A DNA stretch of 64,000 nucleotides from Candidatus Woesearchaeota archaeon (GTDB lineage: Archaea; Nanobdellota; Nanobdellia; Woesearchaeales; UBA583): the NCBI GenBank assembly GCA_023898345.1, contig CP060218.1:767777-831776 (forward strand). Reading direction: 5' to 3'. Below the pieces are notes generated by a model, which did no database searches, was not told the origin of the DNA, and saw nothing but the letters and a program-made list of their open reading frames with translations. Position numbers and translations under genes: made by a program. Below, one piece after another: positions 1-61,307 of the stretch; within the stretch, counting starts at the first letter, position 1; each line of letters opens with the position of its first letter.

Positions 1-905
1 CTAAAAATTTAATCGAATTATTAAAAATAGATTTAATTCGAAATTATGAAACTAGAGAGGAAAATAGTAATTTATTAAAAGGAAAACTATTAATGTCAAA
101 ACATTTAAGATATAATTTATTTAATAAAGCTAAATTCTATTCTCAGTTTGATGAGTTCACAGAAGATAATTCACTTAACAAAACATTTAAGTTAACTATT
201 GACAAATTACTCAAATTTACTCAAAATTCAAAAAATTTTAAATTACTAACAGAATGTAATTTAATCCTTCAAGATGTTACATTAAATAAGCTTTCAATTA
301 ATGATGTTGAAAAAGTTAAATTTACAAGATTAAATAAACAATATGAGAATATATTCAACTTAGCAAAATTATTATTATTTGAAAATTCCATAGATTTAAA
401 TTCTAAAGACACTAAAACATATTCATTAATGTTTGATATGAATAAATTATTTGAGGAATTTATTTTTGAATTTATAAGAAGAAATTTTCAATTTAGATTT
501 GAAAATATTCAATCAGAAAAACCTCAAAAATATTTATTTATAGATTCGCCTAAATTTATTTTAAAACCAGATATAACTATTAATTGTAATAAAGATAATT
601 GTGAATTAATAATTGATACTAAATACAAAAAAGTTAATGATATAAAATCTGACAAATATGGAGTTTCAAGAGAAGATGTCTATCAAATGTTTGTTTATTC
701 AAAAGTATATAACTGTAAAAATATAATCTTATTATATCCTAAATATGAAAAAGAGATAGAAAACGTAGTGTTTGAATCAGAATTTAATTTCAAACTTCAT
801 ATTAAAACTGTAGATTTACATATAGATTTAATAAAAGACAAAGAGAAATTAAAAAGAGAATTAAATACACTATTAAACATAATCCAAAATGACATTAAAC
901 AATAA
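1..905 (+). CDS. PD-(D/E)xK nuclease, McrC-like C-terminal region (5' partial; frame open to window start)
   Basis: ORF 93..905 has no in-frame stop upstream to position 3; motif PDITIN...ELIIDTKYK resembles the PD-(D/E)xK core of McrC-type subunits; 17-nt overlap with the downstream helicase gene. Confidence 0.4.
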   Translation, partial: KNLIELLKIDLIRNYETREENSNLLKGKLLMSKHLRYNLFNKAKFYSQFDEFTEDNSLNKTFKLTIDKLLKFTQNSKNFKLLTECNLILQDVTLNKLSINDVEKVKFTRLNKQYENIFNLAKLLLFENSIDLNSKDTKTYSLMFDMNKLFEEFIFEFIRRNFQFRFENIQSEKPQKYLFIDSPKFILKPDITINCNKDNCELIIDTKYKKVNDIKSDKYGVSREDVYQMFVYSKVYNCKNIILLYPKYEKEIENVVFESEFNFKLHIKTVDLHIDLIKDKEKLKRELNTLLNIIQNDIKQ

Positions 906-3900
906 CCAAAAAAAAGCAGTTGAAAAGATAAAAGGACCAACTATAGTTCTAGCTGGAGCAGGTACAGGTAAAACTTACACAATAGTAGAAAAAGTAAAGC
1001 ATCTTGTTGAATCAGGTGAATATAAACCTGAAGAAATTTTATGCCTAACCTTTTCAAATGAAGCTGCAAACTCTTTAAAAAATAAAATACAAGAAGGGTT
1101 GAAATCTTTTAAAGTGCCAACTGTTAGAACTTTTCATGGTTTTTGTTTAGATATTCTAAAAGAAGATTCAAACTTACTAAACATAGACAACGGTTTTGAT
1201 ATTCTTCTACCTGATGATGCTAAAGTATTAATGCACAGAGAATTAAACATCTCACCTTATTGGTCTAATAGATATGTATCAACTATATCAAATGCTAAAG
1301 ATTTTGGAATAGAAAAAGTAAAGATAGAAGAATACTTCTTAAAAATAAAGGAACACTTAGCACAAAACTATGATATAAACAATATCGACGAAATAGCAAA
1401 AGAGAAAGAGTTCGACCTAAATACAATTCATCTAGAACCAAATACTAAAGAGATAAGAGCATACAAAAAAGAGATCAAAGAGTTCTTAGAGTTATACAAA
1501 GAGTACGAATCATTTAAAGAGTTTCTTCAAGTCTGGGATGATTTTGAACAATTAAAAAAAGATAAAAACTTTTTAGACTATGGAGATCTAAATCATTTTG
1601 TTTTACATTTATTTAGAAAATTTGGAGCAGATAAGTATACAGATAGATATAAACATGTAATTATAGATGAATTTCAAGATACAAATAAAGTCCAATTTGA
1701 ATTAATAGAACATATTGCAATAGATCACAAAAACATAACAGTAGTAGGAGATCCAAATCAGAGTATTTATGGATTTAGAGGTTCATATAAAGAGAGCTTT
1801 AATCATTTCATGAAAACTTACAATGCAACTGAAAAAGATGAAGTTAAATTAGAAGAGTCCCACAGGTCTACAAATAGAATATTAAATATTGCTCATGATT
1901 TAATTAAAAATAATTATGAGAATCAAGAAGAATGTTTTAAGACATTTAATGCAGAAAAACACGAAGGAAAAAAAGTTAAAATAATTGAGTCTGTTAATAT
2001 GGCAGAAGAAGCAAGAGTAATTGCTGACATAGTTGAAGAAAAATTAAAACAAGGAACTATTGCAAAAGATATATGTATTTTATTTAGAACTCACCGGCAA
2101 GGAGATTACCTAAAAGAGTATTTAAGTTCAAGAAATATTCCTCTAGCTCAAGCAGGAAAGACTAATCTTCTAAACAAAAGAGAGATTAAAACTACTATTT
2201 GCTATCTCTCAATGTTAAACAATCTAGTAACAAGAACTGCAACAGGAGAGCAAGGTTTATGGTCTTTATTTCATTATAAAAACTTTCTTTCAATGGAAGA
2301 CTCATTAAAAATAGGAAGATATCTTAAGAAGAACAAAGACAAATCTATTGATGAAATATTAATGTTTGCAATTAAAGAGTTAGACTTAACTCAAAGTTCA
2401 ATTAAGATAATTAAAAATATTTTAAGTAAGATAAGAGAACTTCACAAGAGATCAAACTTGCCTCTTGAAGAGTTAGTTTTAGAGATATATGAAATTACAG
2501 GATTAAATAGAGCTTTCTCATATCAAAGAACTAATGAGAATGTTGAAGCTTTAATGAATCTTAAGAAATTTTATGATATTGCAAAATCTTTTAGAGAGTT
2601 TCATGGAGATAACTTAAACAACTTTATAGATTATTTAGAAGTATTAAGAGAACTAGGAGTATCAATTGATGCAAGTGAAATTAAAAATGATAATGCTGTA
2701 AGATTTATGACTATTCATGCATCAAAAGGTTTAGAGTTTGAGACTGTAATCGTCTCAAATTTAGCTGAGAAAAGATTTCCAGTATCAAGAACTCAAAATG
2801 AACCTCTAATTCCAAAAGAGTTACTTCCAGACTTAAAACTTTATTTAGAAAAAAAAGGAGAATTAACAGATAAAGAGAAAGAAGATGTAATTAAGAATTA
2901 CGAAAAAGAGATGCTTTTAATTGAGGAAAGAAGGCTCGCTTATGTTGCATTTACAAGAGCAAAAAATGAATTAATATTAACATTTGCAAGAAGTTATGAT
3001 AAAAATCCTGATTCAAATGAAGAGTCTATATTTTTACAAGAGATAGGTTATGATAATTGGAACTCATCTGAAGAGAAAATAGAAAATGAAAATTTAGAAT
3101 ATATTAAAGATGAACAAGAATTAAATACTTCAGTTGCACCAACTTCTCCAAAAGATAAATTATTAGATATTTTAAAGAAACAGATAGTTGAGAGTTTAGA
3201 TAGTGATGATATTAATACTATATTAGATAATATTTCGCAATATAGGACAGTTAAAGAAGAAAAAATAGTTAATCTAAACAAGATGTCAGAAAAAGATTTA
3301 AATAATCTAATTGAGAAGGCTAAGACTAATTTCTCTGGATTAAAATTTGACAAATCTATGATAACACTATCACCATCTGCTTTAATAGATTATAGCGAAT
3401 GTCCAAAAAAATTTGAATTATCAAGAATACTACAAATGCCTCAAAAAAATCAATTTTCTGATGATACTGATGCAGCATCTATTGGTTCATTTGTTCATCA
3501 AGTATTAGAAGATGGAGTAAATAATAAATTCAAATCTGAAAAAGAGTTCTTAGAACACTCTAAAGAGCTAATGAAAAAAGAAGAGTATGAAGGAATGCCT
3601 CAAGATGAAGTTGAGACAATGATTAAAGTATTCTGGCTCAGAAACAAAAATAAATACAATGATAAGTCGCAAACAGAGATTGGTCTATCTATGGAACTTG
3701 ATGGCTTTAAATACTTTGGACTAGCAGATAGAGTAGATGAATTAGAAGATGGAACACTTGAAATTGTAGATTACAAATCTAATAAATCAGCAGTTGATAC
3801 TAAAAAAAGAAATTATCAATTAGGTTACTATGCAATTGCATGTAGAGAATCTATGAAAAGAGAACCATCTAAATTAACTCTTGAAATGTTAAAGTTAGAT

Positions 3901-4113
3901 AAACCTTTAGAAATGTTTGTTGAAGGAAATATTGTAAAAGGTCCAGATGGTAGAACAAAGCCATTTAATCTTGATGAACTAAAAGAAGAATTTAAAATGT
4001 TAGCAAATAAAATTGCAAAAGATTTTGAAAGCGAGTTTAAAGTGAGTGATAATGAGAATGCCTGTAGGTTTTGCGGACTTAAATTTTATTGTCCAAAATA
4101 TAGTGAGGATTGA
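889..4113 (+). CDS. SF1 UvrD/Rep-type helicase fused to C-terminal RecB/Cas4-like PD-(D/E)xK nuclease with Cys cluster
   Basis: Walker A LAGAGTGKT, Walker B VIIDEFQD, C-terminal EIVDYKSNK, QLGYYAIAC and CRFCGLKFYCPKY motifs in the 1074-aa translation. Confidence 0.75.
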   Translation: MTLNNNQKKAVEKIKGPTIVLAGAGTGKTYTIVEKVKHLVESGEYKPEEILCLTFSNEAANSLKNKIQEGLKSFKVPTVRTFHGFCLDILKEDSNLLNIDNGFDILLPDDAKVLMHRELNISPYWSNRYVSTISNAKDFGIEKVKIEEYFLKIKEHLAQNYDINNIDEIAKEKEFDLNTIHLEPNTKEIRAYKKEIKEFLELYKEYESFKEFLQVWDDFEQLKKDKNFLDYGDLNHFVLHLFRKFGADKYTDRYKHVIIDEFQDTNKVQFELIEHIAIDHKNITVVGDPNQSIYGFRGSYKESFNHFMKTYNATEKDEVKLEESHRSTNRILNIAHDLIKNNYENQEECFKTFNAEKHEGKKVKIIESVNMAEEARVIADIVEEKLKQGTIAKDICILFRTHRQGDYLKEYLSSRNIPLAQAGKTNLLNKREIKTTICYLSMLNNLVTRTATGEQGLWSLFHYKNFLSMEDSLKIGRYLKKNKDKSIDEILMFAIKELDLTQSSIKIIKNILSKIRELHKRSNLPLEELVLEIYEITGLNRAFSYQRTNENVEALMNLKKFYDIAKSFREFHGDNLNNFIDYLEVLRELGVSIDASEIKNDNAVRFMTIHASKGLEFETVIVSNLAEKRFPVSRTQNEPLIPKELLPDLKLYLEKKGELTDKEKEDVIKNYEKEMLLIEERRLAYVAFTRAKNELILTFARSYDKNPDSNEESIFLQEIGYDNWNSSEEKIENENLEYIKDEQELNTSVAPTSPKDKLLDILKKQIVESLDSDDINTILDNISQYRTVKEEKIVNLNKMSEKDLNNLIEKAKTNFSGLKFDKSMITLSPSALIDYSECPKKFELSRILQMPQKNQFSDDTDAASIGSFVHQVLEDGVNNKFKSEKEFLEHSKELMKKEEYEGMPQDEVETMIKVFWLRNKNKYNDKSQTEIGLSMELDGFKYFGLADRVDELEDGTLEIVDYKSNKSAVDTKKRNYQLGYYAIACRESMKREPSKLTLEMLKLDKPLEMFVEGNIVKGPDGRTKPFNLDELKEEFKMLANKIAKDFESEFKVSDNENACRFCGLKFYCPKYSED

Positions 4114-4114
4114 A

Positions 4115-4519
4115 ATGGCATTTAAAGAAGAATTACATTTTATTTTTTTGGGAATCTCAACAATATTAACATCATTTTTATTAGATTATTTATTTAATTA
4201 TGCTGAGATTTATTCGAAAATAAATTCAATTATTGCATTAGTATTATTTGGTTTGTTCTTAATTTTTATGACTAAACTAGTTTTGTTTCCAATAACAGCT
4301 TATTTTAATAAATTATTTTTACCTAAAGGATATAAATCAAGAAAATATCTTGATATTAATAATGATTTTAATCTACCAAGCACATCTATTATTACAATAT
4401 TTATTATAGATAATGTTTCAAGTTTATATTCATTAGATTATATTTATTTAGTTATTTTAGTTATTCCTATATTTTTAATAATTCATTATCTAAATGAAAA
4501 TTTCGAGATATATAGTTAA
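4115..4519 (+). CDS. Small integral membrane protein, hypothetical
   Basis: ATG at 4115 directly after helicase stop; multiple hydrophobic helices in translation. Confidence 0.4.
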   Translation: MAFKEELHFIFLGISTILTSFLLDYLFNYAEIYSKINSIIALVLFGLFLIFMTKLVLFPITAYFNKLFLPKGYKSRKYLDINNDFNLPSTSIITIFIIDNVSSLYSLDYIYLVILVIPIFLIIHYLNENFEIYS

Positions 4520-4578
4520 TCATGTTCATATTGATAAATGAACTCTAAAAAAATTATAGATGGTATGTAAAATAAAAT

Positions 4579-4761
4579 TCAAAACTCCAACAAATAAAAA
4601 CCTAAAGCACTTTTACCAATAATTGTGCATTCTAAAAATTTCTTTTTTAGTAAGTTTGGATTTATTCCCTTAGCAGAAACTCTAAAAGTCTCATATTTGT
4701 CATTTAAGAGGAATTTTCCTCTCTTCTCAGATTCAAATTCCATATATTTTGTCGTTTTCAT
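4579..4761 (-). CDS. Hypothetical small protein (60 aa)
   Basis: ORF only; position between membrane protein and integrase. Confidence 0.2.
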   Translation of the reverse strand: MKTTKYMEFESEKRGKFLLNDKYETFRVSAKGINPNLLKKKFLECTIIGKSALGFYLLEF

Positions 4762-4897
4762 AATATTCTAAAATTTGGTTATTTTTAACACTTTGCAAAG
4801 ACTATTAACTTCAATTTAAGCGATTTACACTCAAAATAATGAGAGAAATATTTCAAAACAAGTCTTAGTCTTAAAATGTCAAAAAAGTCTTCAAATA

Positions 4898-5809
4898 TCA
4901 ATGTCTAATCACCTCCAACACTTTTTCATATTCTTTTACTGCAATCTCTTTTTTATTTAAATAATGAGTCATCCCAACATTTTTTGAAGTTGACCTTCCA
5001 GATATGAAGTTTGCTATTTCAATTGCAACTCCTGCTTTAACCATTAAAGTAAATGAATACTTTCTTAGATACTTTAAATGAACTATTTTCTTATTATCTT
5101 GGGTATGATCTACAAATCTATTGAAGTATGTTTTATCAAATTTACCAATATGTTCTTTTAATTCATTATATAATTCTAATGTAAAGAATAGATAATAAGA
5201 TGATTTCTGACCTCTTAAATAGAAATTATTGTAAGTAACTATGCCGTTTTCATGTATTTCTATGTTCTTTTCATCAAAATTTTCAAAGAAATGTTTAACT
5301 TCTGTTGTCCTAGCTGTTGTTTCAATATAGAATCTATATAATAAATAATGTAATCTATCATATTTAGATACTTCTTTTACAGAGTTTTTAATCTCCAAAC
5401 ATGTAGGAATATAAGTATCAATATGAACTTCATTGTGAATTTTAATTCTTCTTCGGATGTTTTCAATTATATCTAAGTCTAATATATCAAACTCTTCTAA
5501 GTAATTCAGCCATACTCTAATTGCAACTCCTCCTTGTCTTTTGTTAATTTTTTCAAGAGCAATAGCATTTTTAATCTCTTCAATGGTATTAACACTAATC
5601 TCTTCAAACAATTTAGTTAGACAATTAAAAACAGATACTGCGTAAGTTCTTGTGAACTTTTTTAAAGTATATACTTTATATTCATTTTTTGTCTTAAAGT
5701 ATATACTTTTTAATTCTATAAAATTTTGATTTTTTGGCGTAAAATTTTCTAAATTTTGAGAAATTTGCTGTTGATTAGAAATTTGTGAGGAGGCGTATTT
5801 GCCCCCTAG
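4898..5809 (-). CDS. Tyrosine recombinase / integrase (N-terminus uncertain)
   Basis: C-terminal HLKYLRKYSFT...GRS...GMTHY resembles the H-x-x-R ... Y catalytic region of tyrosine recombinases; track ORF runs on to 5980 through the tRNA, which is unlikely to be coding; no in-frame ATG after the tRNA, first TTG is much further in. Confidence 0.55.
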   Translation of the reverse strand, partial: LGGKYASSQISNQQQISQNLENFTPKNQNFIELKSIYFKTKNEYKVYTLKKFTRTYAVSVFNCLTKLFEEISVNTIEEIKNAIALEKINKRQGGVAIRVWLNYLEEFDILDLDIIENIRRRIKIHNEVHIDTYIPTCLEIKNSVKEVSKYDRLHYLLYRFYIETTARTTEVKHFFENFDEKNIEIHENGIVTYNNFYLRGQKSSYYLFFTLELYNELKEHIGKFDKTYFNRFVDHTQDNKKIVHLKYLRKYSFTLMVKAGVAIEIANFISGRSTSKNVGMTHYLNKKEIAVKEYEKVLEVIRH

Positions 5810-5812
5810 AGA

Positions 5813-5894
5813 CGCCAAGACTGGGATTTGAACCCAGAATTCCGAAGGAACTACATTAGCAGTGTAGCGCAATACCGAGTTATGCGATCTTGGC
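5813..5894 (-). tRNA. tRNA-Ser (anticodon GCU)
   Basis: Manual fold of minus strand: acceptor GCCAAGA/TCTTGGC, anticodon stem CTACA/TGTAG, loop CTGCTAA, long variable arm TTCC..GGAA, T-arm CTGGG-TTCAAAT-CCCAG, discriminator G. Confidence 0.8.
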
Positions 5895-5923
5895 ATTAGG
5901 TCTCTTTTTTTAGTCGCCGCCGG

Positions 5924-5958
5924 ATTAGCAGTGCTGCGCAATACCGAGTTATGCGACC
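5924..5958 (-). repeat. Partial duplicate of tRNA-Ser 5' half (32/35 identical to 5855-5889)
   Basis: Direct repeat attagcagtg(ct/ta)gcgcaataccgagttatgcga(c/t)c about 30 bp 5' of the tRNA on the same strand. Confidence 0.6.
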
Positions 5959-6041
5959 TCAGCTCGATGAAGATAAACAAGTAAACTTGCTATCAAAAAG
6001 TGATAAGCCAAATCTCTTTTAAAAGATTTTGCTTCTTCCCT

Positions 6042-7946
6042 TTAAGGGAAGGACCCTCCTGCTTTGTACTTTGGAGTTCTTTGAGGGGACGTGAGACGCA
6101 GATCTTCACTCATAGCAGCCCCTTCACGCACTGTCCCTTCCATTTTTTTTGTTTCTATTAGCTCTTTTACACTTTTTTGATCTCCCGTGAAATGGGGATT
6201 ATTAAGCATTTCTAGAAAAAGAAACTCCCAACAAAGCATATTATGAAGTGTGAAATACTCTTTATTGAGCAGTTGTTTTGCGTTTGTTGAAATTTTTTTA
6301 TACAATTTCTCGTCCTTAAGGAGCTCGTACATTCGTTGTGCAACCAGCTCACAGTTGCCTGTTCCTACAATAAAACCTGTTTCCCCATCTTTTACTTGTA
6401 AAGGAAGTCCGCCACTTGCAGACACTACAACTGGTACTCCCTTTGCCAAACTTTCTGTAACTTTAACTTCAAATCCTTCCTTATGAGATAATTGCAATGC
6501 TAGTTTTGCTCCTCGAAGAAGAGTATTAAGAATTCTGTCTGATGGCGGAAGAAGAGAGACTTTGACGTCTTTTTGGAAGGCTTTGTATTTTGTGGAAAGG
6601 AGTGTTTTTGTTTCTGTATAAATTCTCTCTCTGTCGGGATCGTCAATTGAACTGTGCCCTGCAATAACAAGTTGAGGAATAGAACATTTCTCTTTCTTTA
6701 ATTTTTTCCTTAGAAGGGCATAACTTTTAAGAAGATCTGGAATTCCTTTTGAAGGATCAAATCGAGCAACCTGAATAAGATACTCTCTTGTCGTATCTAG
6801 TTCTTCTTCTGCATGTTCTCGCTGTAATTTGTTAAATACACTATAATAATAAGCCATTTGTTCAGAACTAAGGTCTTTGTTCAGCCCATCGTAAGGATCT
6901 GTTGTTGCTGGCATCAGAACTGTTTTGCTTTTTGCAACGTTTGAAGGAATAAATTCAAGCATAGGATGACTAATATAAAGATCGGCTAGTTCAAGGTTTG
7001 AGGAGATAAAATGCCAAGTTTTGTACTGTGGTGAGTTCTCTTTTGTTGCAAGAGTGCTTTCGATTTGAATGTGGGAGCGATAAATCACTTTGCATGTGGG
7101 ATTGATCCCCTTTATCCATGGAATGAGTCCACTTGGTTGTGGATCATCAATAACTACAATGTCTGCCTGATGAATGAGTGGCCCGAACATTTGAGCATTG
7201 TCTTCACTCCACTTCCTGAATTTGCTTATCTCTTCTAAAGTTAATTCGACATTTTTTGGCGCCACATTTTGAAGAATATTGTGAAACTTCTTCTTTGTAA
7301 TTTCAAAAATTTCTTGGTCTGCTTTCTTTGTATGCCAACTAGCATTGATCCCGAACATACGCATTGTTCTGATGAGAGCATGACGCATTAAAGCTACTCC
7401 GCCACCCCGAGGGGTTGAATTAATGAAGACAATCTTCTTTCCTTTGAGAGCCTGAGCATAGCGTTTAACATCTTCAAGTGTTCCTTTATTCTCGTGTTCT
7501 TCCACATATCTTTTATCGACAAGATCTGTTACTTCAACTTCATTATATTTGCCAAGGCGGACAATAATATGGTCGAATTCATCAAATCGCTGCATAAGCT
7601 GCTTTGCTAATTCTTGCGACAGAAGGGAACACTGAGAGATTACCTCTTTTCTTTTTGTTATAAAGGGAATAATATCAAGTTCAAGCCAAATTTTTGTCGC
7701 TAGTTTTTCAAATTTCTTTTTATTCCCTTCAATTTCTAGAGCAACACAGCGAAATTTATTTTTTTTCAAATAACTCTCAATCCAGTCAAAAATGACCTCC
7801 TCAACATTCTTCTTCCCAAAACTTACTTCTTCATTTGCTGCAGGGATTTGTCGTGAAAGAATAGAACAGTATATTTTCGTTTTGTTCACTGCAACTCCGA
7901 TATAGACAGAGGGTTTTGGCTCAGTATGTTCTTTTTGTCCTGCCAT
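6042..7946 (-). CDS. Glycosyltransferase, GT4-like (trehalose synthase/phosphorylase-like)
   Basis: NSTPRGGGVA motif and C-terminal EGFEVKVTESLAKGVPVV region typical of retaining GT-B glycosyltransferases. Confidence 0.5.
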   Translation of the reverse strand: MAGQKEHTEPKPSVYIGVAVNKTKIYCSILSRQIPAANEEVSFGKKNVEEVIFDWIESYLKKNKFRCVALEIEGNKKKFEKLATKIWLELDIIPFITKRKEVISQCSLLSQELAKQLMQRFDEFDHIIVRLGKYNEVEVTDLVDKRYVEEHENKGTLEDVKRYAQALKGKKIVFINSTPRGGGVALMRHALIRTMRMFGINASWHTKKADQEIFEITKKKFHNILQNVAPKNVELTLEEISKFRKWSEDNAQMFGPLIHQADIVVIDDPQPSGLIPWIKGINPTCKVIYRSHIQIESTLATKENSPQYKTWHFISSNLELADLYISHPMLEFIPSNVAKSKTVLMPATTDPYDGLNKDLSSEQMAYYYSVFNKLQREHAEEELDTTREYLIQVARFDPSKGIPDLLKSYALLRKKLKKEKCSIPQLVIAGHSSIDDPDRERIYTETKTLLSTKYKAFQKDVKVSLLPPSDRILNTLLRGAKLALQLSHKEGFEVKVTESLAKGVPVVVSASGGLPLQVKDGETGFIVGTGNCELVAQRMYELLKDEKLYKKISTNAKQLLNKEYFTLHNMLCWEFLFLEMLNNPHFTGDQKSVKELIETKKMEGTVREGAAMSEDLRLTSPQRTPKYKAGGSFP

Positions 7947-8111
7947 TTTTTATCTTAAAGTTACTTGAGTTAATTTTTTTTTTAAATGTTCTTTTTAACC
8001 AAGGGAAAGAAAAATCTCTCCGAATTTTGAAAAACCTCTATAATTCTCAAAGAGTTTTTAGAAACCACACTATCAAAAAAATACTTAAAAGCAATAAAAA
8101 ACACTTTTGAC

Positions 8112-8765
8112 ATGAAGCACGAAGACATCATTGAGAAAACAGTAGAGTTTGTAAAAAGAGAACTCGACGGAGCAGAAGCAGCACACGACTGGTGGCATAT
8201 TTACAGAGTCTGGAACTTGGCAAAACACATAAACAAGACAGAGAGTGCTGATGTCCTAACAGTTGAACTGGGTGCATTACTTCACGACATTGCTGATGCG
8301 AAGTTTCATGAGGGAAATGAAGATATTGGGCCACTCAAAGCAAGAGAATTTCTCAGTTCATTAGAGATTGATGGAAAAATTATTGAGCATATTGAAAACA
8401 TTATTAAGAACATATCTTATCGAAAAAGCCTCGAGGGACAAGACTTCAAATCTTTAGAGCTTGATATTGTACAAGATGCCGACAGACTTGATGCCATAGG
8501 AGCAATGGGTATTGCACGAACATTTACTTACGGAGGAAGCAAAGGCCGCGAATTGTACAACCCAAACATAAAACCGAATCTTTCTATGACAAAAGACGAG
8601 TACAAAAAAAGTACGGCGCCATCACTCAATCATTTCTACGAAAAGCTTCTTTTACTCAAAGACAAGATGAACACAAAAACAGGAAAAAAGATGGCAGAGC
8701 ACAGACACAAAATAATGGAAGAATTTCTTACAGAATTTTACAAAGAATGGGAGGGGGAAGTTTGA
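8112..8765 (+). CDS. HD-domain phosphohydrolase
   Basis: H..WWHIYRV, LLHDIAD and DADRLDAIG motifs. Confidence 0.7.
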   Translation: MKHEDIIEKTVEFVKRELDGAEAAHDWWHIYRVWNLAKHINKTESADVLTVELGALLHDIADAKFHEGNEDIGPLKAREFLSSLEIDGKIIEHIENIIKNISYRKSLEGQDFKSLELDIVQDADRLDAIGAMGIARTFTYGGSKGRELYNPNIKPNLSMTKDEYKKSTAPSLNHFYEKLLLLKDKMNTKTGKKMAEHRHKIMEEFLTEFYKEWEGEV

Positions 8766-9829: not shown

Positions 9830-10726
9830 TCCCGAAAAACTCCCTTAAACAAATGTTTAAATTCAGAAGAGATAAATCTTATTTTTATGGAACATTCTGA
9901 AGCCCTAGAAATTATAGAAACTTATGATTTAACTCCTGGACAAAGAGAATTTCTTTTTGAAAGGGCTCCTTCTTATGCTGATTCTACTTCGAATTTTCCT
10001 GCTCTTTATTCGCTGATTGCAGAAGCAGTCTCTTTCTTGAAACAACCTCTCCCTGAAAAAATGGGATTAAGTTTGGAAATGCGTCTATCTCCTACGGATG
10101 AGAGAACTTTAAAAGATGTTCTTGGTTACGAAGCACCCAGAATATTTGAACATGACATTCAGTACAGAACAGAGCAAATACGTAACATTTCACGTTTTTC
10201 TTTAGAAAAAAGAATGTCTTTTGATTTGTTAGAATTTTTTACATCTCTTGTCCTTCACAGTAGCCTAGAACCTGAAGACTATCAAAGGCTCCTCGAAACT
10301 GTAAATCCTGAAAAACTCTTAGAAATTTCATCTCGTTTAAAACAGGTAAAAGAACGGATTTTTGATAAAGAAGAATACTTTCTTAACATAATAGGAATAA
10401 AATCTTTTGATCCATTACAGATAAAATTTCTAAAACAAAGAAACTATAATGGAAATCCTTTAGCTTTTTTTAGAGAATATTTTCCTCTTTATCAAGGAAT
10501 GTCTAGATCAGAATTAAAGTCTTTTGACGTTGGTCTATACCAAGCACTGCGTTTACATGGACAAATACACTTGGCCATCCCAAGGAATAAAAAGAAACCT
10601 TCAGAATCAGATATTGCGCGAATTCAACGAATTTTTGAGTCTTATAATAGAAACAAAAGAGAAACTGCCCGTTTTCTTGGTATTACTAGCCAAACAGTTG
10701 CAAAATATATTCGTCCACAAAAATAA
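9821..10726 (+). CDS. Hypothetical protein with C-terminal helix-turn-helix
   Basis: C-terminal RETARFLGITSQTVAKYI resembles a Fis-type HTH; start codon uncertain. Confidence 0.35.
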   Translation: MCQSRKTPLNKCLNSEEINLIFMEHSEALEIIETYDLTPGQREFLFERAPSYADSTSNFPALYSLIAEAVSFLKQPLPEKMGLSLEMRLSPTDERTLKDVLGYEAPRIFEHDIQYRTEQIRNISRFSLEKRMSFDLLEFFTSLVLHSSLEPEDYQRLLETVNPEKLLEISSRLKQVKERIFDKEEYFLNIIGIKSFDPLQIKFLKQRNYNGNPLAFFREYFPLYQGMSRSELKSFDVGLYQALRLHGQIHLAIPRNKKKPSESDIARIQRIFESYNRNKRETARFLGITSQTVAKYIRPQK

Positions 10727-10773
10727 CTCCTTTTTTCTCCTCTCCTTCCACTTTGTTCGTTTGCTAGATAACG

Positions 10774-10805
10774 TTCTCGAAGTTAAAAACTTCTGCGGAA
10801 TACTA
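10774..10805. repeat. Conserved imperfect-palindrome repeat, copy 1 of 4 (GTTCTCGAAGTTAAAAACTTCTG.GGAGCA)
   Basis: Near-identical cores at 10774-10805, 33735-33790 (interrupted), 40544-40576 and 57352-57384. Confidence 0.6.
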
Positions 10806-11573: not shown

Positions 11574-11714
11574 AAGTAAAGAAATCGCTAAAATATGCCT
11601 ATCCCAATCGGAGCAGAGCTCCGGGGCATTACGGCAATTTTCAAGACGCGATTTCTAACTCCCAGCTGGGTGGTCGCAGCAGAGCTGCGGGGTATAAATA
11701 CCCAGCTAAGGAAT
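11574..11714 (+). repeat. 141-bp intergenic repeat, copy 1 (about 98% identical to 31333-31472)
   Basis: Manual alignment: two substitutions and one 1-bp indel; contains palindrome CCCAGCTGGG and internal direct repeat GCAGAGCT(C/G)CGGGG. Confidence 0.7.
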
Positions 11715-31332: not shown

Positions 31333-31472
31333 AAGTAAAGAAATCGCTAAAATATGCCTATCCCAATCGGAGCAGAGCTCCGGGGCATTACGGCAATTTT
31401 CAAGACGCGATTTCTAACTCCCAGCTGGGTAGTCGCAGCAGAGCTGCTGGGTATAATACCCAGCTAAGGAAT
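31333..31472 (+). repeat. 140-bp intergenic repeat, copy 2 (matches 11574-11714)
   Basis: See copy 1; same orientation, about 20 kb apart. Confidence 0.7.
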
Positions 31473-33483: not shown

Positions 33484-33691
33484 TACTTCTTGTAAGAGTT
33501 TCGCTTTATAGTTTTTATTTTTTCGACACAGTGAAAAAATTCTGTTTTGAGGTTGAAGGAAAATTTTGTTCGGCGCCGCTTTCAGTGATAGAAGACTTCA
33601 AAAAAAACAGATACTTGCCCTAAACATTTTTTAGCTCCTCTTTTGAAAAAGTAAAAGATACTAGAATGAATATAGTTTTCCACAAAAATAA

Positions 33692-34912
33692 TTATTTTTG
33701 TCTCTCTTCCAGTTTCTTTGTTCGTTTGCTATAGGGTGTTCTCGGAGTATAATACCCAGCTAAGGAATTAAAAACTTCTGCGGAGCACCATAGAATAAAA
33801 AACAAAACCCCTCCCATGATATAAAACCCGAGTTTGTATGAAGTGTTCATAAAAAAACCGATACTAAAAACAAGAGAAAAATTAAATACCATCGAAATTT
33901 GTCCTTTAATAGAAAGAATAGTCGCTTTGTACCTCTTATCAGCAATATAATGCTTTAGTAAATATCCATCGACAAATGTTCTTCTTCCCATTTCATATGC
34001 TCCAACAAGAATAAGAACAAAAGCTACTACATAAAAGGAATTTGAAAAAGCAATAATAAAAAATGATAACGGAAAAAAAACTGTGTCGAAAAGAAGAATT
34101 TTTTTGATAGGTAAACTTTTTTCAAATCTTCCCAGATTTTTCCCCATAAAAAACTGAAGAAAAGCGGACAAACCCAAAACCACACCAAGTGCTACAATTG
34201 GAAAGCCAAGTGTTTCTAAATATGGAAATATAAAATTTGTTTTTGCAATAGAAAAACCTGTAATTGCTCCTGTAAACGTTGCTAAAGGCAAAAATAACGT
34301 TCCTTTAACTTCCTTGAATACTTGTAACAAAGAGATATGCTTTACTGATTTTTCAGGAAGTGTTGGATTCACAAGAGACAAAGCAAAAAGAAAACCAATA
34401 CTATCAAAACCTAACCCAATTAGGAGGGGAGTTTCTAAGCTAAGCTTTGTCGTATACGGAATAAGAGTAATAAGAACTGCACTAACAAGTGAAGCATAAG
34501 CAGTTATTTTGGTACTGATACTCATAAACTCATCTTCTTTTTTCAAACTTACAAGTGTTTCATGAAGAAATGCAGCTCTTGTGCCAGACTGGGCGGCAAA
34601 GGATAAGGAGGTAAAAATTGCTCCTAAAACAAAAAAAAGTAAAGAAGCACCATAGAGAAAACTCACTACTGCTAAAATCATAAATAGTTTAGCTAAAACT
34701 AGCATTTTTTTATGTCCAATTTTATCTGAGATGTATCCACTTGGAATTTCAAAAAGAAACTCTGCCAAATATCCCATTCCAGACCAAAAGCCGATTTGAA
34801 CAGCATTTGCGTTTGGTAAAGTTAAAAAATATAGAGAAAGAATTGGAAGATAATACCTTCTCTGTGTAAGCTGAAGAATAAATAATTTCCAGATATTATG
34901 CTGTAATTCCAT
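33692..34912 (-). CDS. MFS-type transporter (C-terminal about 30 aa likely read-through of an intergenic repeat)
   Basis: About 12 TM helices; 3' end overlaps the repeat block at 33735-33790. Confidence 0.6.
   Translation of the reverse strand: MELQHNIWKLFILQLTQRRYYLPILSLYFLTLPNANAVQIGFWSGMGYLAEFLFEIPSGYISDKIGHKKMLVLAKLFMILAVVSFLYGASLLFFVLGAIFTSLSFAAQSGTRAAFLHETLVSLKKEDEFMSISTKITAYASLVSAVLITLIPYTTKLSLETPLLIGLGFDSIGFLFALSLVNPTLPEKSVKHISLLQVFKEVKGTLFLPLATFTGAITGFSIAKTNFIFPYLETLGFPIVALGVVLGLSAFLQFFMGKNLGRFEKSLPIKKILLFDTVFFPLSFFIIAFSNSFYVVAFVLILVGAYEMGRRTFVDGYLLKHYIADKRYKATILSIKGQISMVFNFSLVFSIGFFMNTSYKLGFYIMGGVLFFILWCSAEVFNSLAGYYTPRTPYSKRTKKLEERQK
33735..33790. repeat. Composite repeat: hairpin-family element interrupted by a 22-bp fragment (33747-33768) of the 140-bp repeat
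   Basis: gttctcggag + gtataatacccagctaaggaat + taaaaacttctgcggagcac. Confidence 0.55.
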
Positions 34913-38886: not shown

Positions 38887-40509
38887 TTACTGCAAAGAAG
38901 CAACCTTTCGAAGATAAGCCTTAAATTCTTCCATTACTTTTGTTCGGCCATATTCAACAAATTTCACAGAACCTGCTCTTTCGTGTCCGCCACCTTCTGC
39001 TCTTGTATAAGGATGTTCTCTCATAATTTGTCCTGCAAATTCCGGAATAGAGATCCGAGAAATTCCGTCGCTCACGCGAACTGTCAGAAAGGTCGAACCA
39101 GAGGTTGCTGTAACAATTGGCTTGTCAAGTCCTTGTTCAAAAATCTTGTGAATATGATTTGTTGTTTTTCCAACAGCAGGATATTCCCCCCTATTTGTCC
39201 CTTTTTCTCCATCAAAGTGAATAAGATAAAAAGGACCAAAATCTTCTTTTTCAGCATAATATTGTGCAACTTCTTCAACTTGTTTGTAACGCTTTTCGAG
39301 CTCAGGAGCAAGGAGTTGGACAATTCTTTCTTGTGCAGCCTTATTTTTTCCAAAAAGATCGTCAATAAATTCTCTCGATTCCTGAAATCGCAAGTAATGA
39401 GATTGCATATCGACAATTTCCCCTAACTTTGCCATGTAGTCCTGTGTATAACCTTCCGCCTCTGCTTGTACTATGTACTGATCTTTCTCTGTACCATCAC
39501 AGTGATCGAGAATAGCAGCCATCGCAGGAATAAGAACGGAGTTTGTGTGTTTGTCGTGAATGAAGTTTGCAAGTTCAAAGCCAAGCATTCCTGTACAAAC
39601 ATTCGAGTCAAACCCTTCAAGATAAGGATTGATGTGGGCTTCAATATATTTGTCAACTTCAACTTTTCCATCTTTAACCTCTCCTGGATAATGATGATCA
39701 ACAACAACAATTTTAGCGTCATACAAAAGCATCTGCTGCATTGCTAGAATATCTTCTTGTGTCGAACCATTGTCTGTAATGATAATGAGTGGGGGCTTAT
39801 ACCCGTTTTTTACTTTGTCGCGAAGCCAGTAGCATAAATCTTTGACTGCATCTTCGTATTCATAGAATGGAGCTTTTGAGGGCGCACGTCTGTATAATTG
39901 ATACTGAGACAAAAGATCGTTTCCGGTTATTTCATCCATAAAGGACAGTATTGCTCTCTCTATCGTAATTGCTGAAGAATACCCATCACAGTCGGCATTG
40001 TGTCTCAAAAGAATGGGGCGCCCTTCAAGAACTGCCTCTCTAATGATACTTGCAACCTGTACAAATCTCGGCTTAAGTTTTTCTAAAACTTCAGATTGGA
40101 TGGAAAAAGATGTTGAGACTGGCTTTACTTTGTCGAGCTGCTGTTTATCTATTGCTTTTTGGAACTTTGCACTGTCTTTGCTACTTAATTTTTCCATAGA
40201 ATATGCTTCTCCTTCTATGCTGTCCTTTCGCTCTCGAACTTCAAAGCCAACTTTGACGTCGTCTTCCAACTCAATCTCTGGATATGCTCGTGCTCCTGGC
40301 CTTAGGAAAGCTTTTAGCGTAAAATTCGCCGTCCCGTCATTAAGGACCATGAGTGTTGGCCCTGATGTTTGCTTGATCGTTTTTACTCGTGCTTGAAGTT
40401 CGAATTTCTTTCCAACATCCTCAGAAGTAATTTCTCGAAATGTTTTTGTCATTATTCTTTTGAGTGAGGGCCCGTTTATAAGATTACTGTCTATTCTAGT
40501 TGTCCACAA
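38887..40509 (-). CDS. Archaeal RecJ/GAN-like DHH-family nuclease with N-terminal OB fold
   Basis: DHH motifs RHNADCDGYSS, ITDNG, VVDHH and DHHA1 GGGHERAG. Confidence 0.75.
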   Translation of the reverse strand: MWTTRIDSNLINGPSLKRIMTKTFREITSEDVGKKFELQARVKTIKQTSGPTLMVLNDGTANFTLKAFLRPGARAYPEIELEDDVKVGFEVRERKDSIEGEAYSMEKLSSKDSAKFQKAIDKQQLDKVKPVSTSFSIQSEVLEKLKPRFVQVASIIREAVLEGRPILLRHNADCDGYSSAITIERAILSFMDEITGNDLLSQYQLYRRAPSKAPFYEYEDAVKDLCYWLRDKVKNGYKPPLIIITDNGSTQEDILAMQQMLLYDAKIVVVDHHYPGEVKDGKVEVDKYIEAHINPYLEGFDSNVCTGMLGFELANFIHDKHTNSVLIPAMAAILDHCDGTEKDQYIVQAEAEGYTQDYMAKLGEIVDMQSHYLRFQESREFIDDLFGKNKAAQERIVQLLAPELEKRYKQVEEVAQYYAEKEDFGPFYLIHFDGEKGTNRGEYPAVGKTTNHIHKIFEQGLDKPIVTATSGSTFLTVRVSDGISRISIPEFAGQIMREHPYTRAEGGGHERAGSVKFVEYGRTKVMEEFKAYLRKVASLQ

Positions 40510-40543
40510 GACTCATTCTTTTTGTCTCTTCCCTCTCACTATA

Positions 40544-40576
40544 GTGTTCTCGAAGTTAAAAACTTCTGAGGAGCAT
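40544..40576. repeat. Hairpin-family repeat, copy 3
   Basis: gtgttctcgaagttaaaaacttctgaggagcat in the divergent intergenic region. Confidence 0.6.
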
Positions 40577-57343: not shown

Positions 57344-57351
57344 GAAAACAA

Positions 57352-57384
57352 GTGTTCTCGAAGTTGAAAACTTCTGCTGAGCAC
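57352..57384. repeat. Hairpin-family repeat, copy 4
   Basis: gtgttctcgaagttgaaaacttctgctgagcac between convergent genes. Confidence 0.6.
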
Positions 57385-61303: not shown

Positions 61304-61307
61304 TTTT

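Follow-up and report, generated by a model that had tools for sequence, protein, structure and literature searches.

Mobile elements that integrate into transfer RNA (tRNA) genes differ in what they leave of their target. Members of the archaeal SSV1 type (SSV1, pT26-2 and TKV-like elements) share at least 40-50 bp with the tRNA and rebuild it intact (PMC7253208; PMC8371274). According to a 2021 review, the gene is restored in every archaeal integration, those of the pTN3-like users of the tRNA 5' half among them (PMC8371274). As that review summarizes them, the pTN3-like integrases of Thermococcales carry the tRNA 5' half as the attachment site of the element (attP), and the gene is rebuilt at the junction that bears the N-terminal part of the integrase, Int(N) (Cossu et al. 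2017 via PMC8371274). Mycobacteriophages with tRNA-dependent lysogeny (e.g., Fionnbharth) have a core of ~10 bp whose use destroys the tRNA, and a phage tRNA of the same isotype compensates for the loss (Guerrero-Bustamante & Hatfull 2024, PMC10865867). In Caldiarchaeum, a recombinase has next to it a full tRNA that is preceded by a 5' tRNA fragment; the tRNA there is reconstituted by a pNOB8-type insertion, and mobile elements have been proposed to disrupt tRNA genes (Sugahara et al. 2012, PMC3293823). Here, we describe a 22,668-bp mobile element of a DPANN archaeon, Candidatus Woesearchaeota archaeon, whose integrase-bearing end lies in the 64,000-nucleotide stretch analyzed (hereafter the window; contig CP060218.1, positions 767,777 to 831,776). 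The window begins inside the element. The element entered the host tRNA-Ser(GCU) gene by site-specific recombination in a 9-bp anticodon-loop core, cutting the gene into two halves, neither of which was rebuilt. Its attP core lies inside its own integrase gene, so that integration splits that gene too.

On the minus strand, the locus consists in order of host flank, a 40-nucleotide segment GCTGAGGTCGCATAACTCGGTATTGCGCAGCACTGCTAAT (5963..5924), a 29-nucleotide spacer CCGGCGGCGACTAAAAAAAGAGACCTAAT (5923..5895), an intact tRNA-Ser(GCU) gene reading GCCAAGATCGC...TCTTGGCG (5894..5813), and an open reading frame (ORF) extending to 4898. An earlier note on this DNA, made from the letters alone, had recognized a tRNA-Ser(GCU) gene with a tyrosine recombinase 3' of it on the same strand, and both were recovered: the tRNA by ARAGORN (minus strand, 5811-5895) and by the Rfam tRNA model (5813-5894, 56.2 bits), and the recombinase by PF16795 (E = 2.6e-26) together with matches to SSV1 integrase structures, which make it an SSV1-type enzyme and not a chromosomal Xer paralog. 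The partial tRNA copy that the note had placed 5' of the gene likewise exists, though its extent had to be corrected to the 40 nucleotides of window 5963..5924 (minus strand), corresponding to tRNA positions 1-39; the identity of 32/35 given for it is the same match trimmed otherwise, which we count as 35/40, or 31/33 from position 8. When this segment is compared with the first 40 nucleotides of the intact tRNA, the 35 matching positions are followed by an abrupt end of similarity right after the anticodon loop, and the segment has its own stem strands, with GCTGAGG in the acceptor stem (GCCAAGA in the intact tRNA) and CAGCA in the anticodon stem (CTACA in the intact tRNA). The gap between partial copy and tRNA is 29 nucleotides (5895-5923) and their start-to-start spacing is 69 nucleotides, which places both tRNA copies in one reading frame; the mechanically called ORF (4898..5980, 360 aa) does read through both, as had been noticed.

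The match of the partial copy to the tRNA is far beyond chance, and the copy is base for base the 5' half of the intact tRNA found at this locus in relatives. We located these relatives through assemblies with an identical copy of the TreT gene of the host flank. In two such assemblies, L003 and L002, the TreT gene is identical, the integrase is absent, and an intact 83-nucleotide tRNA-Ser(GCU), GCTGAGG...CCTCAGCG, lies between TreT and a copper-ATPase operon (L003 5641-5723; L002 5688-5770). The first 40 nucleotides of this empty-site tRNA are identical to the partial copy in the window, and window 5924-5963 is thus the host's own 5' half. The reading of the partial copy as an element-made duplicate or att scar consequently falls, since the segment came from the original tRNA of the host, as its displaced 5' half. 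The tRNA beside the integrase is intact, as had been thought, but it is not the host gene: it is element-borne, with acceptor and anticodon stems of its own.

The far end of the element was reached via the 68-aa HMA protein of the copper operon, on a locus (L096) that covers 441,253-461,459 of the record in which window position 1 is position 474,104 (contig JACJVU010000001.1, GCA_020637525.1). Read on the tRNA strand, an ORF starting MLKSIYFKKMPKNKITKKKVLITLDLEIVKRLKRSNKPISTHINEVLSKHFL... runs there into ...TTTTCGTTCG ACTGCTAAT GCTGTTCCCTTCGGAATTGCGGGTTCAAATCCCGTCCTCAGCG, so that the order is Int(N) ORF, core, host tRNA 3' half, and then flank identical to L002. The second tRNA 3' end that the earlier note had proposed to look for in the flanking genome therefore exists; it is the host 3' half, 22,668 bp away and to the left of the window, this being the distance between the two cores. 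The left junction (attL, in the window) matches the empty site (attB) exactly across the core and for at least 78 bp to its left, with a flank identical to L002 at 477/477 positions, and the right junction (attR) equals attB from the core onward, with 476/476 flank positions identical to L002. The 9-bp core ACTGCTAAT is the sole sequence common to attL, attR (L096 16107-16115) and attB, and it comprises A31, the anticodon loop 32-38 and U39, that is, the loop plus one base on each side. Neither ARAGORN nor Rfam found a tRNA at attR, and all that attL retains of the host gene is the orphan 5' half. The suspicion of a tRNA integration site with a non-classical arrangement was thus borne out on both counts by the far end and the empty site.

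Base composition agrees with these boundaries. The G+C content is 25.7% in window 1-5923 and 36.8% in the rest of the window, and the drop, to 21-29% from the 35-42% of the host, coincides exactly with the partial tRNA; because the composition switches there, the DNA on the integrase side is foreign, and it extends leftward past the start of the window. A search of the window found no host 3' half, no complement of the G+C-rich spacer and no long direct repeats, the far end being outside it. The insertion is recent and polymorphic: the window is occupied, L003 and L002 are empty, and in run SRR1171181 we found both a contig with the occupied junction (L012) and a host-side contig ending exactly at the core (L006), a stop that would be consistent with the assembly forking there between the occupied and the empty state. 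The complete empty site of L003 comes from the neighboring run SRR1171179. Scans of species-representative genomes returned no match to the exact pattern, and a scan based on the copper ATPase gave DPANN archaea, at no more than 57% identity.

The same tRNA locus shows signs of other traffic. L003 carries an 18-nucleotide direct repeat of the tRNA 3' end (CAAATCCCGTCCTCAGCG; 5823-5840), ~100 bp downstream of the tRNA, which looks like an att scar of a different element targeting the tRNA 3' end; we considered this ~100-bp scar as a remnant of a related integrase and rejected the idea, the similarity to the integrase region not being significant. Between the tRNA 3' end and the copper-ATPase gene, L002 and the genome of the window contain an AbiL-like two-gene cassette (AbiLi E = 8.7e-58, AbiLii E = 1.7e-10; G+C 21-24%; L096 13956-15663 = L002 6171-7878). 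In the genome of the window, the cassette is located outside the window itself, just past the far end of the element. It is absent in L003 and so constitutes a second, independent insertion polymorphism at this tRNA locus.

The integrase belongs to the SSV1 family in its catalytic part. The ORF product matches PF16795, "archaeal phage integrase," with 92.9 bits against a cut-off of 27 (E = 2.6e-26), and residues 121-292 match the SSV1 integrase catalytic domain (PDB 3UXU/3VCF/4DKS; best E = 1.5e-12). The far end carries Int(N) as an 87-aa ORF (L096 16319..16056, minus strand). Both junction ORFs read the core as ACT GCT AAT (T-A-N). Joined at the core, Int(N) and the C-terminal part, Int(C), give 1,239 nucleotides with 0 stops, an ORF of 412 aa, and the predicted attP junction reconstructed in this way reads ...TTTTCGTTCGACTGCTAATCCGGCGGCGAC... 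The earlier note had offered an archaeal-style integrase with att inside its own gene as an alternative, and this proved correct: as in SSV1-type elements, attP lies inside the integrase ORF, Int(N) and Int(C) sit at opposite ends of the 22.7-kb insert, and a single ORF crosses the reconstructed attP. Three full-length homologues (P0011-13) have an N-terminal domain with which residues 10-50 of the joined protein align, and the same residues give a weak, sub-threshold match to a ribbon-helix-helix domain (BrnA). From the core or the tRNA to the conserved domain, the integrase frame contains 0 stops, compared with 3-10 in the other two frames, in the window and in three related loci (L106, L094 and L093). 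In the window ORF, the stretch from the tRNA to the conserved integrase domain contains no ATG.

Homologues place this element within its family. P0011 is a classical SSV-type layout with attP in the integrase gene: the gene is intact, an antisense tRNA 3' half lies between the N-terminal domain and the catalytic part, and the contig is replicon-like, with a DUF5906 primase-helicase-like gene; a full tRNA was not found on that contig. P0018 has the layout of a classical integrated element, in which tRNA-Met continues into Int(C). Because these two have classical layouts, the integrase family is SSV-type and the element of the window is a deviant member of it.

Two further features accompany the split gene. 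A perfect palindrome, AAAGTATATACTTT, occurs at 5664-5677 and 5696-5709, 32 bp apart within Int(C), and nowhere else in the window; a third copy lies at the start of Int(N) (L096 16299-16312), so that three copies flank the reconstructed attP. The pair recurs with identical spacing in L094, L106 and L093, though the proteins are only 72-98% identical. As a hypothesis, these copies could serve as arm-type or operator sites, perhaps ones recognized by the N-terminal domain. The Int(N)-side arm of attP was also examined as a decayed tRNA D-arm and rejected, its alignment score falling below the shuffle mean. Beside Int(N), in divergent orientation and inside the element, there is a second, intact PF16795 integrase, Int2 (L096 16429-17559, 376 aa), which is 34% identical to Int(C), differs at its N-terminus and contains no tRNA-like stretch. 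Int2 could be the integrase of a nested element or an excision helper.

The tRNA-Ser(GCU) of the element lies 29 bp downstream of the core and inside the integrase frame, in which it is translated as MPRSHNSVLRYTANVVPSEFWVQIPVLAS; its acceptor stem is GCCAAGA/TCTTGGC. It is the element's own and looks functional. It scored 56.2 and 55.8 Rfam bits, against 55.6 for the host tRNA, and across five related tRNAs 27/27 cloverleaf pairs are kept, 9 of them via compensatory changes on both sides. The tRNAs of the window and of L106 differ in two bases, which are the partners of one T-stem pair. No other tRNA-Ser(GCU) was found in the window and the fetched loci. We think it likely that the element tRNA replaces the function of the destroyed host tRNA. 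The element tRNA of L094 (139-220) agrees at 81/83 positions with the tRNA-Ser(GCU) native to the host of the window (L003 5641-5723), and the element of the window carries instead a GCCAAG-type tRNA like those of other hosts. This hints that tRNA genes may have been exchanged between such elements and hosts, in either direction.

The same junction was found in other hosts. L106, a 132.8-kb contig from the Joint Genome Institute (JGI), has an integrase 98% identical to that of the window in a different A+T-rich host flank, with a host 5' half beginning GCCAAGG...; its junction, spacer and tRNA are as in the window, the spacer being identical and the tRNA two bases apart. The two sequences are 97-99% identical from the core to about window 4700, beyond which identity drops to background. 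From 5100 to 8625, L106 contains cargo ORFs that we take, by eye, to resemble Wadjet JetD (Toprim-like motif YYWGDIDSHGF) and JetC. In L094, the integrase is 83% identical, a third host 5' half (GCCAAGC...) is followed by the same junction, and there is a homologous spacer and a full tRNA. The junction common to the window, L106 and L094 is ACTGCTAAT followed directly by C(C/G). In L093 (integrase 72% identical), a tRNA is followed by the integrase gene, with no upstream half-copy and no far end within 11 kb. Judged by these recurrences, the unit of core, spacer, tRNA and integrase is a portable integration module, present with different cargos in at least three hosts.

We compared the element with the described systems feature by feature. 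It resembles SSV1-type elements in its homologous catalytic domain, its attP within the integrase ORF, the Int(N)/Int(C) split, the translation of att as part of the protein, the tRNA target and the crossover at the anticodon loop, as shown for SSV1. It differs from them in its 9-bp core, the destroyed host tRNA, the whole tRNA within the integrase ORF and its host, a mesophile-like DPANN archaeon instead of a hyperthermophile. The regeneration of the tRNA from attP that characterizes the SSV1 type is absent, since 9 bp are shared and the tRNA at attL is wholly element-derived. With tRNA-dependent lysogeny, the element has in common a short core within the host tRNA (9 bp, against 10 bp in the phage), two junctions that both lack a functional tRNA and rebuild none, and an element-encoded tRNA with the same anticodon, tRNA-Ser(GCU) at 5813-5894, which scores 56.2 bits and has conserved stems. 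Those phages, however, are bacterial and temperate, their lambda-like integrases are not broken and they keep the tRNA gene in another part of the genome, whereas this element is archaeal, its integrase is split, its tRNA lies in the integrase ORF 29 bp from the core, and its tRNA dependence is something we infer. The element would therefore seem to combine archaeal "suicidal" integration with tRNA-dependent lysogeny: it lacks the tRNA restoration of SSV-type elements and has the features of tRNA-dependent lysogeny that can be read from sequence.

Other resemblances are more partial. Like the pTN3-like integrases, as far as the review describes them, the element has the host 5' half displaced beside Int(C), the tRNA and the integrase gene on the same strand, and tRNA expression tied to the module; the Int(N) arm at attR was no closer to the tRNA 5' half than shuffled sequences were, and there is no tRNA at that junction of the kind the review describes as rebuilt. 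The Caldiarchaeum case is similar in its natural population heterogeneity and in that a full tRNA beside a recombinase is preceded by a 5' fragment of the same kind of tRNA, and the split tRNAs of Nanoarchaeum are similar in that the break falls at the anticodon-loop position typical of split genes. Unlike both, the element orphans the two halves, and there is no sign of joining in trans. Classical islands in tRNA and transfer-messenger RNA genes (Williams 2002; Islander, PMC4383910) share the tyrosine integrase next to a tRNA, the foreign composition, the defense cargo and the tRNA-derived bounds, but they restore the 3' part and leave a displaced duplicate, whereas this element duplicates no more than 9 bp and restores nothing. 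Our literature searches did not find the arrangement described in DPANN or other archaea.

We weighed four other explanations. One accepts the same integration and holds that the integrase is not split, starting instead at the ATG that overlaps tRNA position 1 (332 aa), with the 87-aa ORF as a separate regulator or excisionase in the manner of pNOB8. That ATG overlaps G1 of the element tRNA in the window, L106 and L094 (a TTG in L093), and gene callers give products of 306-360 aa. Against this, Int(N) and Int(C) lie in one frame across the core and join into an ORF without a stop, P0011-13 fuse the same N-terminal domain to the catalytic part with an att piece between them, and the 10 spacer codons upstream of the ATG are also open and conserved in frame, all of which leaves an unsplit integrase unlikely. 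It is much less probable still that the locus is a functional split tRNA of the Nanoarchaeum type, whose halves are transcribed apart and joined in trans. The break in the anticodon loop, the usual place of archaeal split genes and introns, would suit such a gene, as would a DPANN host and the G+C-rich stretch CCGGCGGCGAC after the 5' half. Yet no complement of CCGGCGGCGAC was found beside the 3' half or elsewhere in the window, the trailer-leader duplex of -13.5 kcal/mol was equaled by 152/500 shuffles, and the split is polymorphic and recent, with an intact replacement gene 29 bp away.

The tRNA locus is indeed a hotspot, given the 18-nucleotide 3'-end repeat in L003 and the AbiL cassette in L002, which lends something to the view of a classical tRNA island in which the tRNA beside the integrase is the regenerated host gene and the partial copy is an att scar of an earlier, lost element. 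However, the acceptor, anticodon and T stems of the intact tRNA each depart from those of the host gene on both strands, and for that reason this tRNA is not a host/element hybrid; moreover, the host's true 3' half lies at the far junction, fused directly to Int(N). The attR sequence refutes such an island, and we regard it as very improbable. That the two copies are adjacent and in the same orientation might also suggest a local tandem duplication or pseudogene beside a resident recombinase with no mobile element, or else an assembly chimera. Against both ideas, the acceptor and anticodon stems of the copies differ, and the junction recurs in an NCBI metagenome-assembled genome, in several independent Logan assemblies and in a JGI contig of another host, while protein accessions put the same element and its flanking genes on a 1.54-Mb record. 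Both are refuted by the empty site and the far end, which give a clean 22.7-kb insertion with flanks 100% identical, and we give them practically no credence.

We are highly confident of the structural account of a split host tRNA, a split integrase and an embedded tRNA, and we consider the mobile element, taken as a whole, to be quite probably the best explanation of the locus. Several points weigh against it. The whole account is drawn from sequence, in which the recombination products attL and attR and an empty attB were observed. No circular attP form was seen among Logan contigs or in IMG/VR, where neither the attP junction nor the junction motif nor the integrase family had a match; a 22.7-kb Logan contig (L009) was considered as a circular form and rejected, as one of its ends reaches the element tRNA, its length implies host flank at the other, and it looks integrated. 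With an ATG at element tRNA position 1 (TTG in L093), a shorter integrase without Int(N) may be made. The host may have other tRNA-Ser(GCU) genes outside the loci read, and the element tRNA may be neither expressed nor needed. A replication or virion module could lie in the remaining ~3.5 kb of the element (record 461,460-464,991).

If the mobile-element account holds, integration might proceed as follows. After integration, the element tRNA would probably be transcribed from the host tRNA promoter, through a 69-nucleotide leader made of the orphan 5' half and the spacer, and would be released by normal end-processing (RNase P and 3' processing). Standing in for the lost tRNA, it would make integration tolerable without long att identity, because the element itself supplies the tRNA. 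A short core would spare the element from having to match the host tRNA beyond the universally conserved loop of the isoacceptor, and the same module could thereby enter tRNA-Ser genes with different acceptor stems in different hosts. The integrated integrase would be broken ("suicidal"), and excision might depend on integrase from another copy, on a shortened Int(C) made from the ATG overlapping tRNA position 1, or on Int2. A broader proposal, which we advance as speculation and think more probably wrong than right, is that there is a DPANN family of elements with a complete tRNA inside a self-splitting integrase frame and the anticodon loop as their only att site. Each insertion would permanently break the host tRNA and substitute the element's own, driving tRNA replacement and horizontal flow of tRNA genes and providing a live source of orphan halves for split tRNA genes; processing of the embedded tRNA could also cut the integrase mRNA, coupling tRNA supply to integrase shut-off.

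The locus is an exception to the rule, stated in the review (PMC8371274), that archaeal elements targeting tRNA genes always restore the gene. It also suggests the same solution in two domains, as an archaeal element appears to bring its own tRNA in the way that actinobacteriophages do, with an unrelated, self-splitting integrase. A functional-looking tRNA gene within a protein-coding frame raises questions of transcription, of processing by RNase P and RNase Z and of integrase control. The locus further offers a natural, polymorphic case in which a mobile element has severed a tRNA in its anticodon loop. Split tRNA genes were discovered in the superphylum to which this host belongs, and the case makes the mobile-element model of their origin directly testable. 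The requirement for 9 bp may explain how one module with varied defense cargos came to occupy tRNA-Ser genes of at least three hosts.

Features of the integration locus and of the adjoining parts of the window
Feature	Position in window	Strand	Basis
Displaced 5' half of host tRNA-Ser(GCU), positions 1-39	5924..5963	-	Identical to the L003/L002 tRNA
Common core ACTGCTAAT, crossover region of attL	5924..5932	-	Shared by attL, attR and attB
Element-derived 29-bp spacer, read PAATKKRDLM in the integrase frame	5895..5923	-	Absent from the empty site
Element tRNA-Ser(GCU), the only intact one at the locus	5813..5894	-	ARAGORN, Rfam
Int(C), C-terminal 344 codons; stop 4898-4900; catalytic domain ~4898-5420	4898..5932	-	PF16795, PDB
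AAAGTATATACTTT palindrome pair	5664..5709	.	Candidate arm-type/operator sites
Right-hand 4.9 kb of cargo; the element continues ~16.7 kb past the window start	1..4897	.	G+C, Pfam, PADLOC
McrC C-terminus	93-905	+	Pfam/PADLOC
UvrD-helicase/PD-(D/E)XK nuclease	889-4113	+	Pfam/PADLOC
Membrane-like ORF, 157 aa	4046-4519	+	
ORF, 60 aa	4579-4761	-	
Host flank, comprising the upstream region of the host tRNA (presumed tRNA promoter) and the TreT-like gene	5964..7946	-	Identical in occupied and empty genomes
TreT-like glycosyltransferase gene	6042-7946	-	Pfam TreT_GT1, Glycos_transf_1

The recognized cargo of the element comprises two type I methylases, a specificity subunit, a CARF/MarR-like regulator, McrBC, the UvrD-helicase/PD-(D/E)XK nuclease, RhuM and small ORFs. 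No virion or replication genes were recognized in the 19.1 kb read of the 22.7-kb element, nor were relatives found in IMG/VR. By its gene content, the element looks like a mobile defense island.

Several repeats were observed in the window. A 124-nucleotide repeat occurs at 11574-11697 and 31333-31456 with 98% identity, and its motif GTATAATACCCAGCTAAGGAATTA is found three times in the window (11693, 31451 and 33747), one copy being 79% identical. Immediately behind the tRNA, the AbiL cassette is bordered by the reverse complement of GTATAATACCCAGCTAAGGAATTA (L002 5824-5847). This repeat may be a small dispersed repeat or an end resembling that of a miniature inverted-repeat transposable element. 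Window 61307-61496 is a perfect tandem array of ~14 copies of the 13-bp unit TCTGAACCCTGTC. Finally, the intergenic regions at 10704-10790, 33669-33755, 40497-40575 and 57351-57383 share conserved blocks (e.g., GTTCTCGAAGTTAAAAACTTCTG), which may represent a repeated promoter or regulatory motif of the host.

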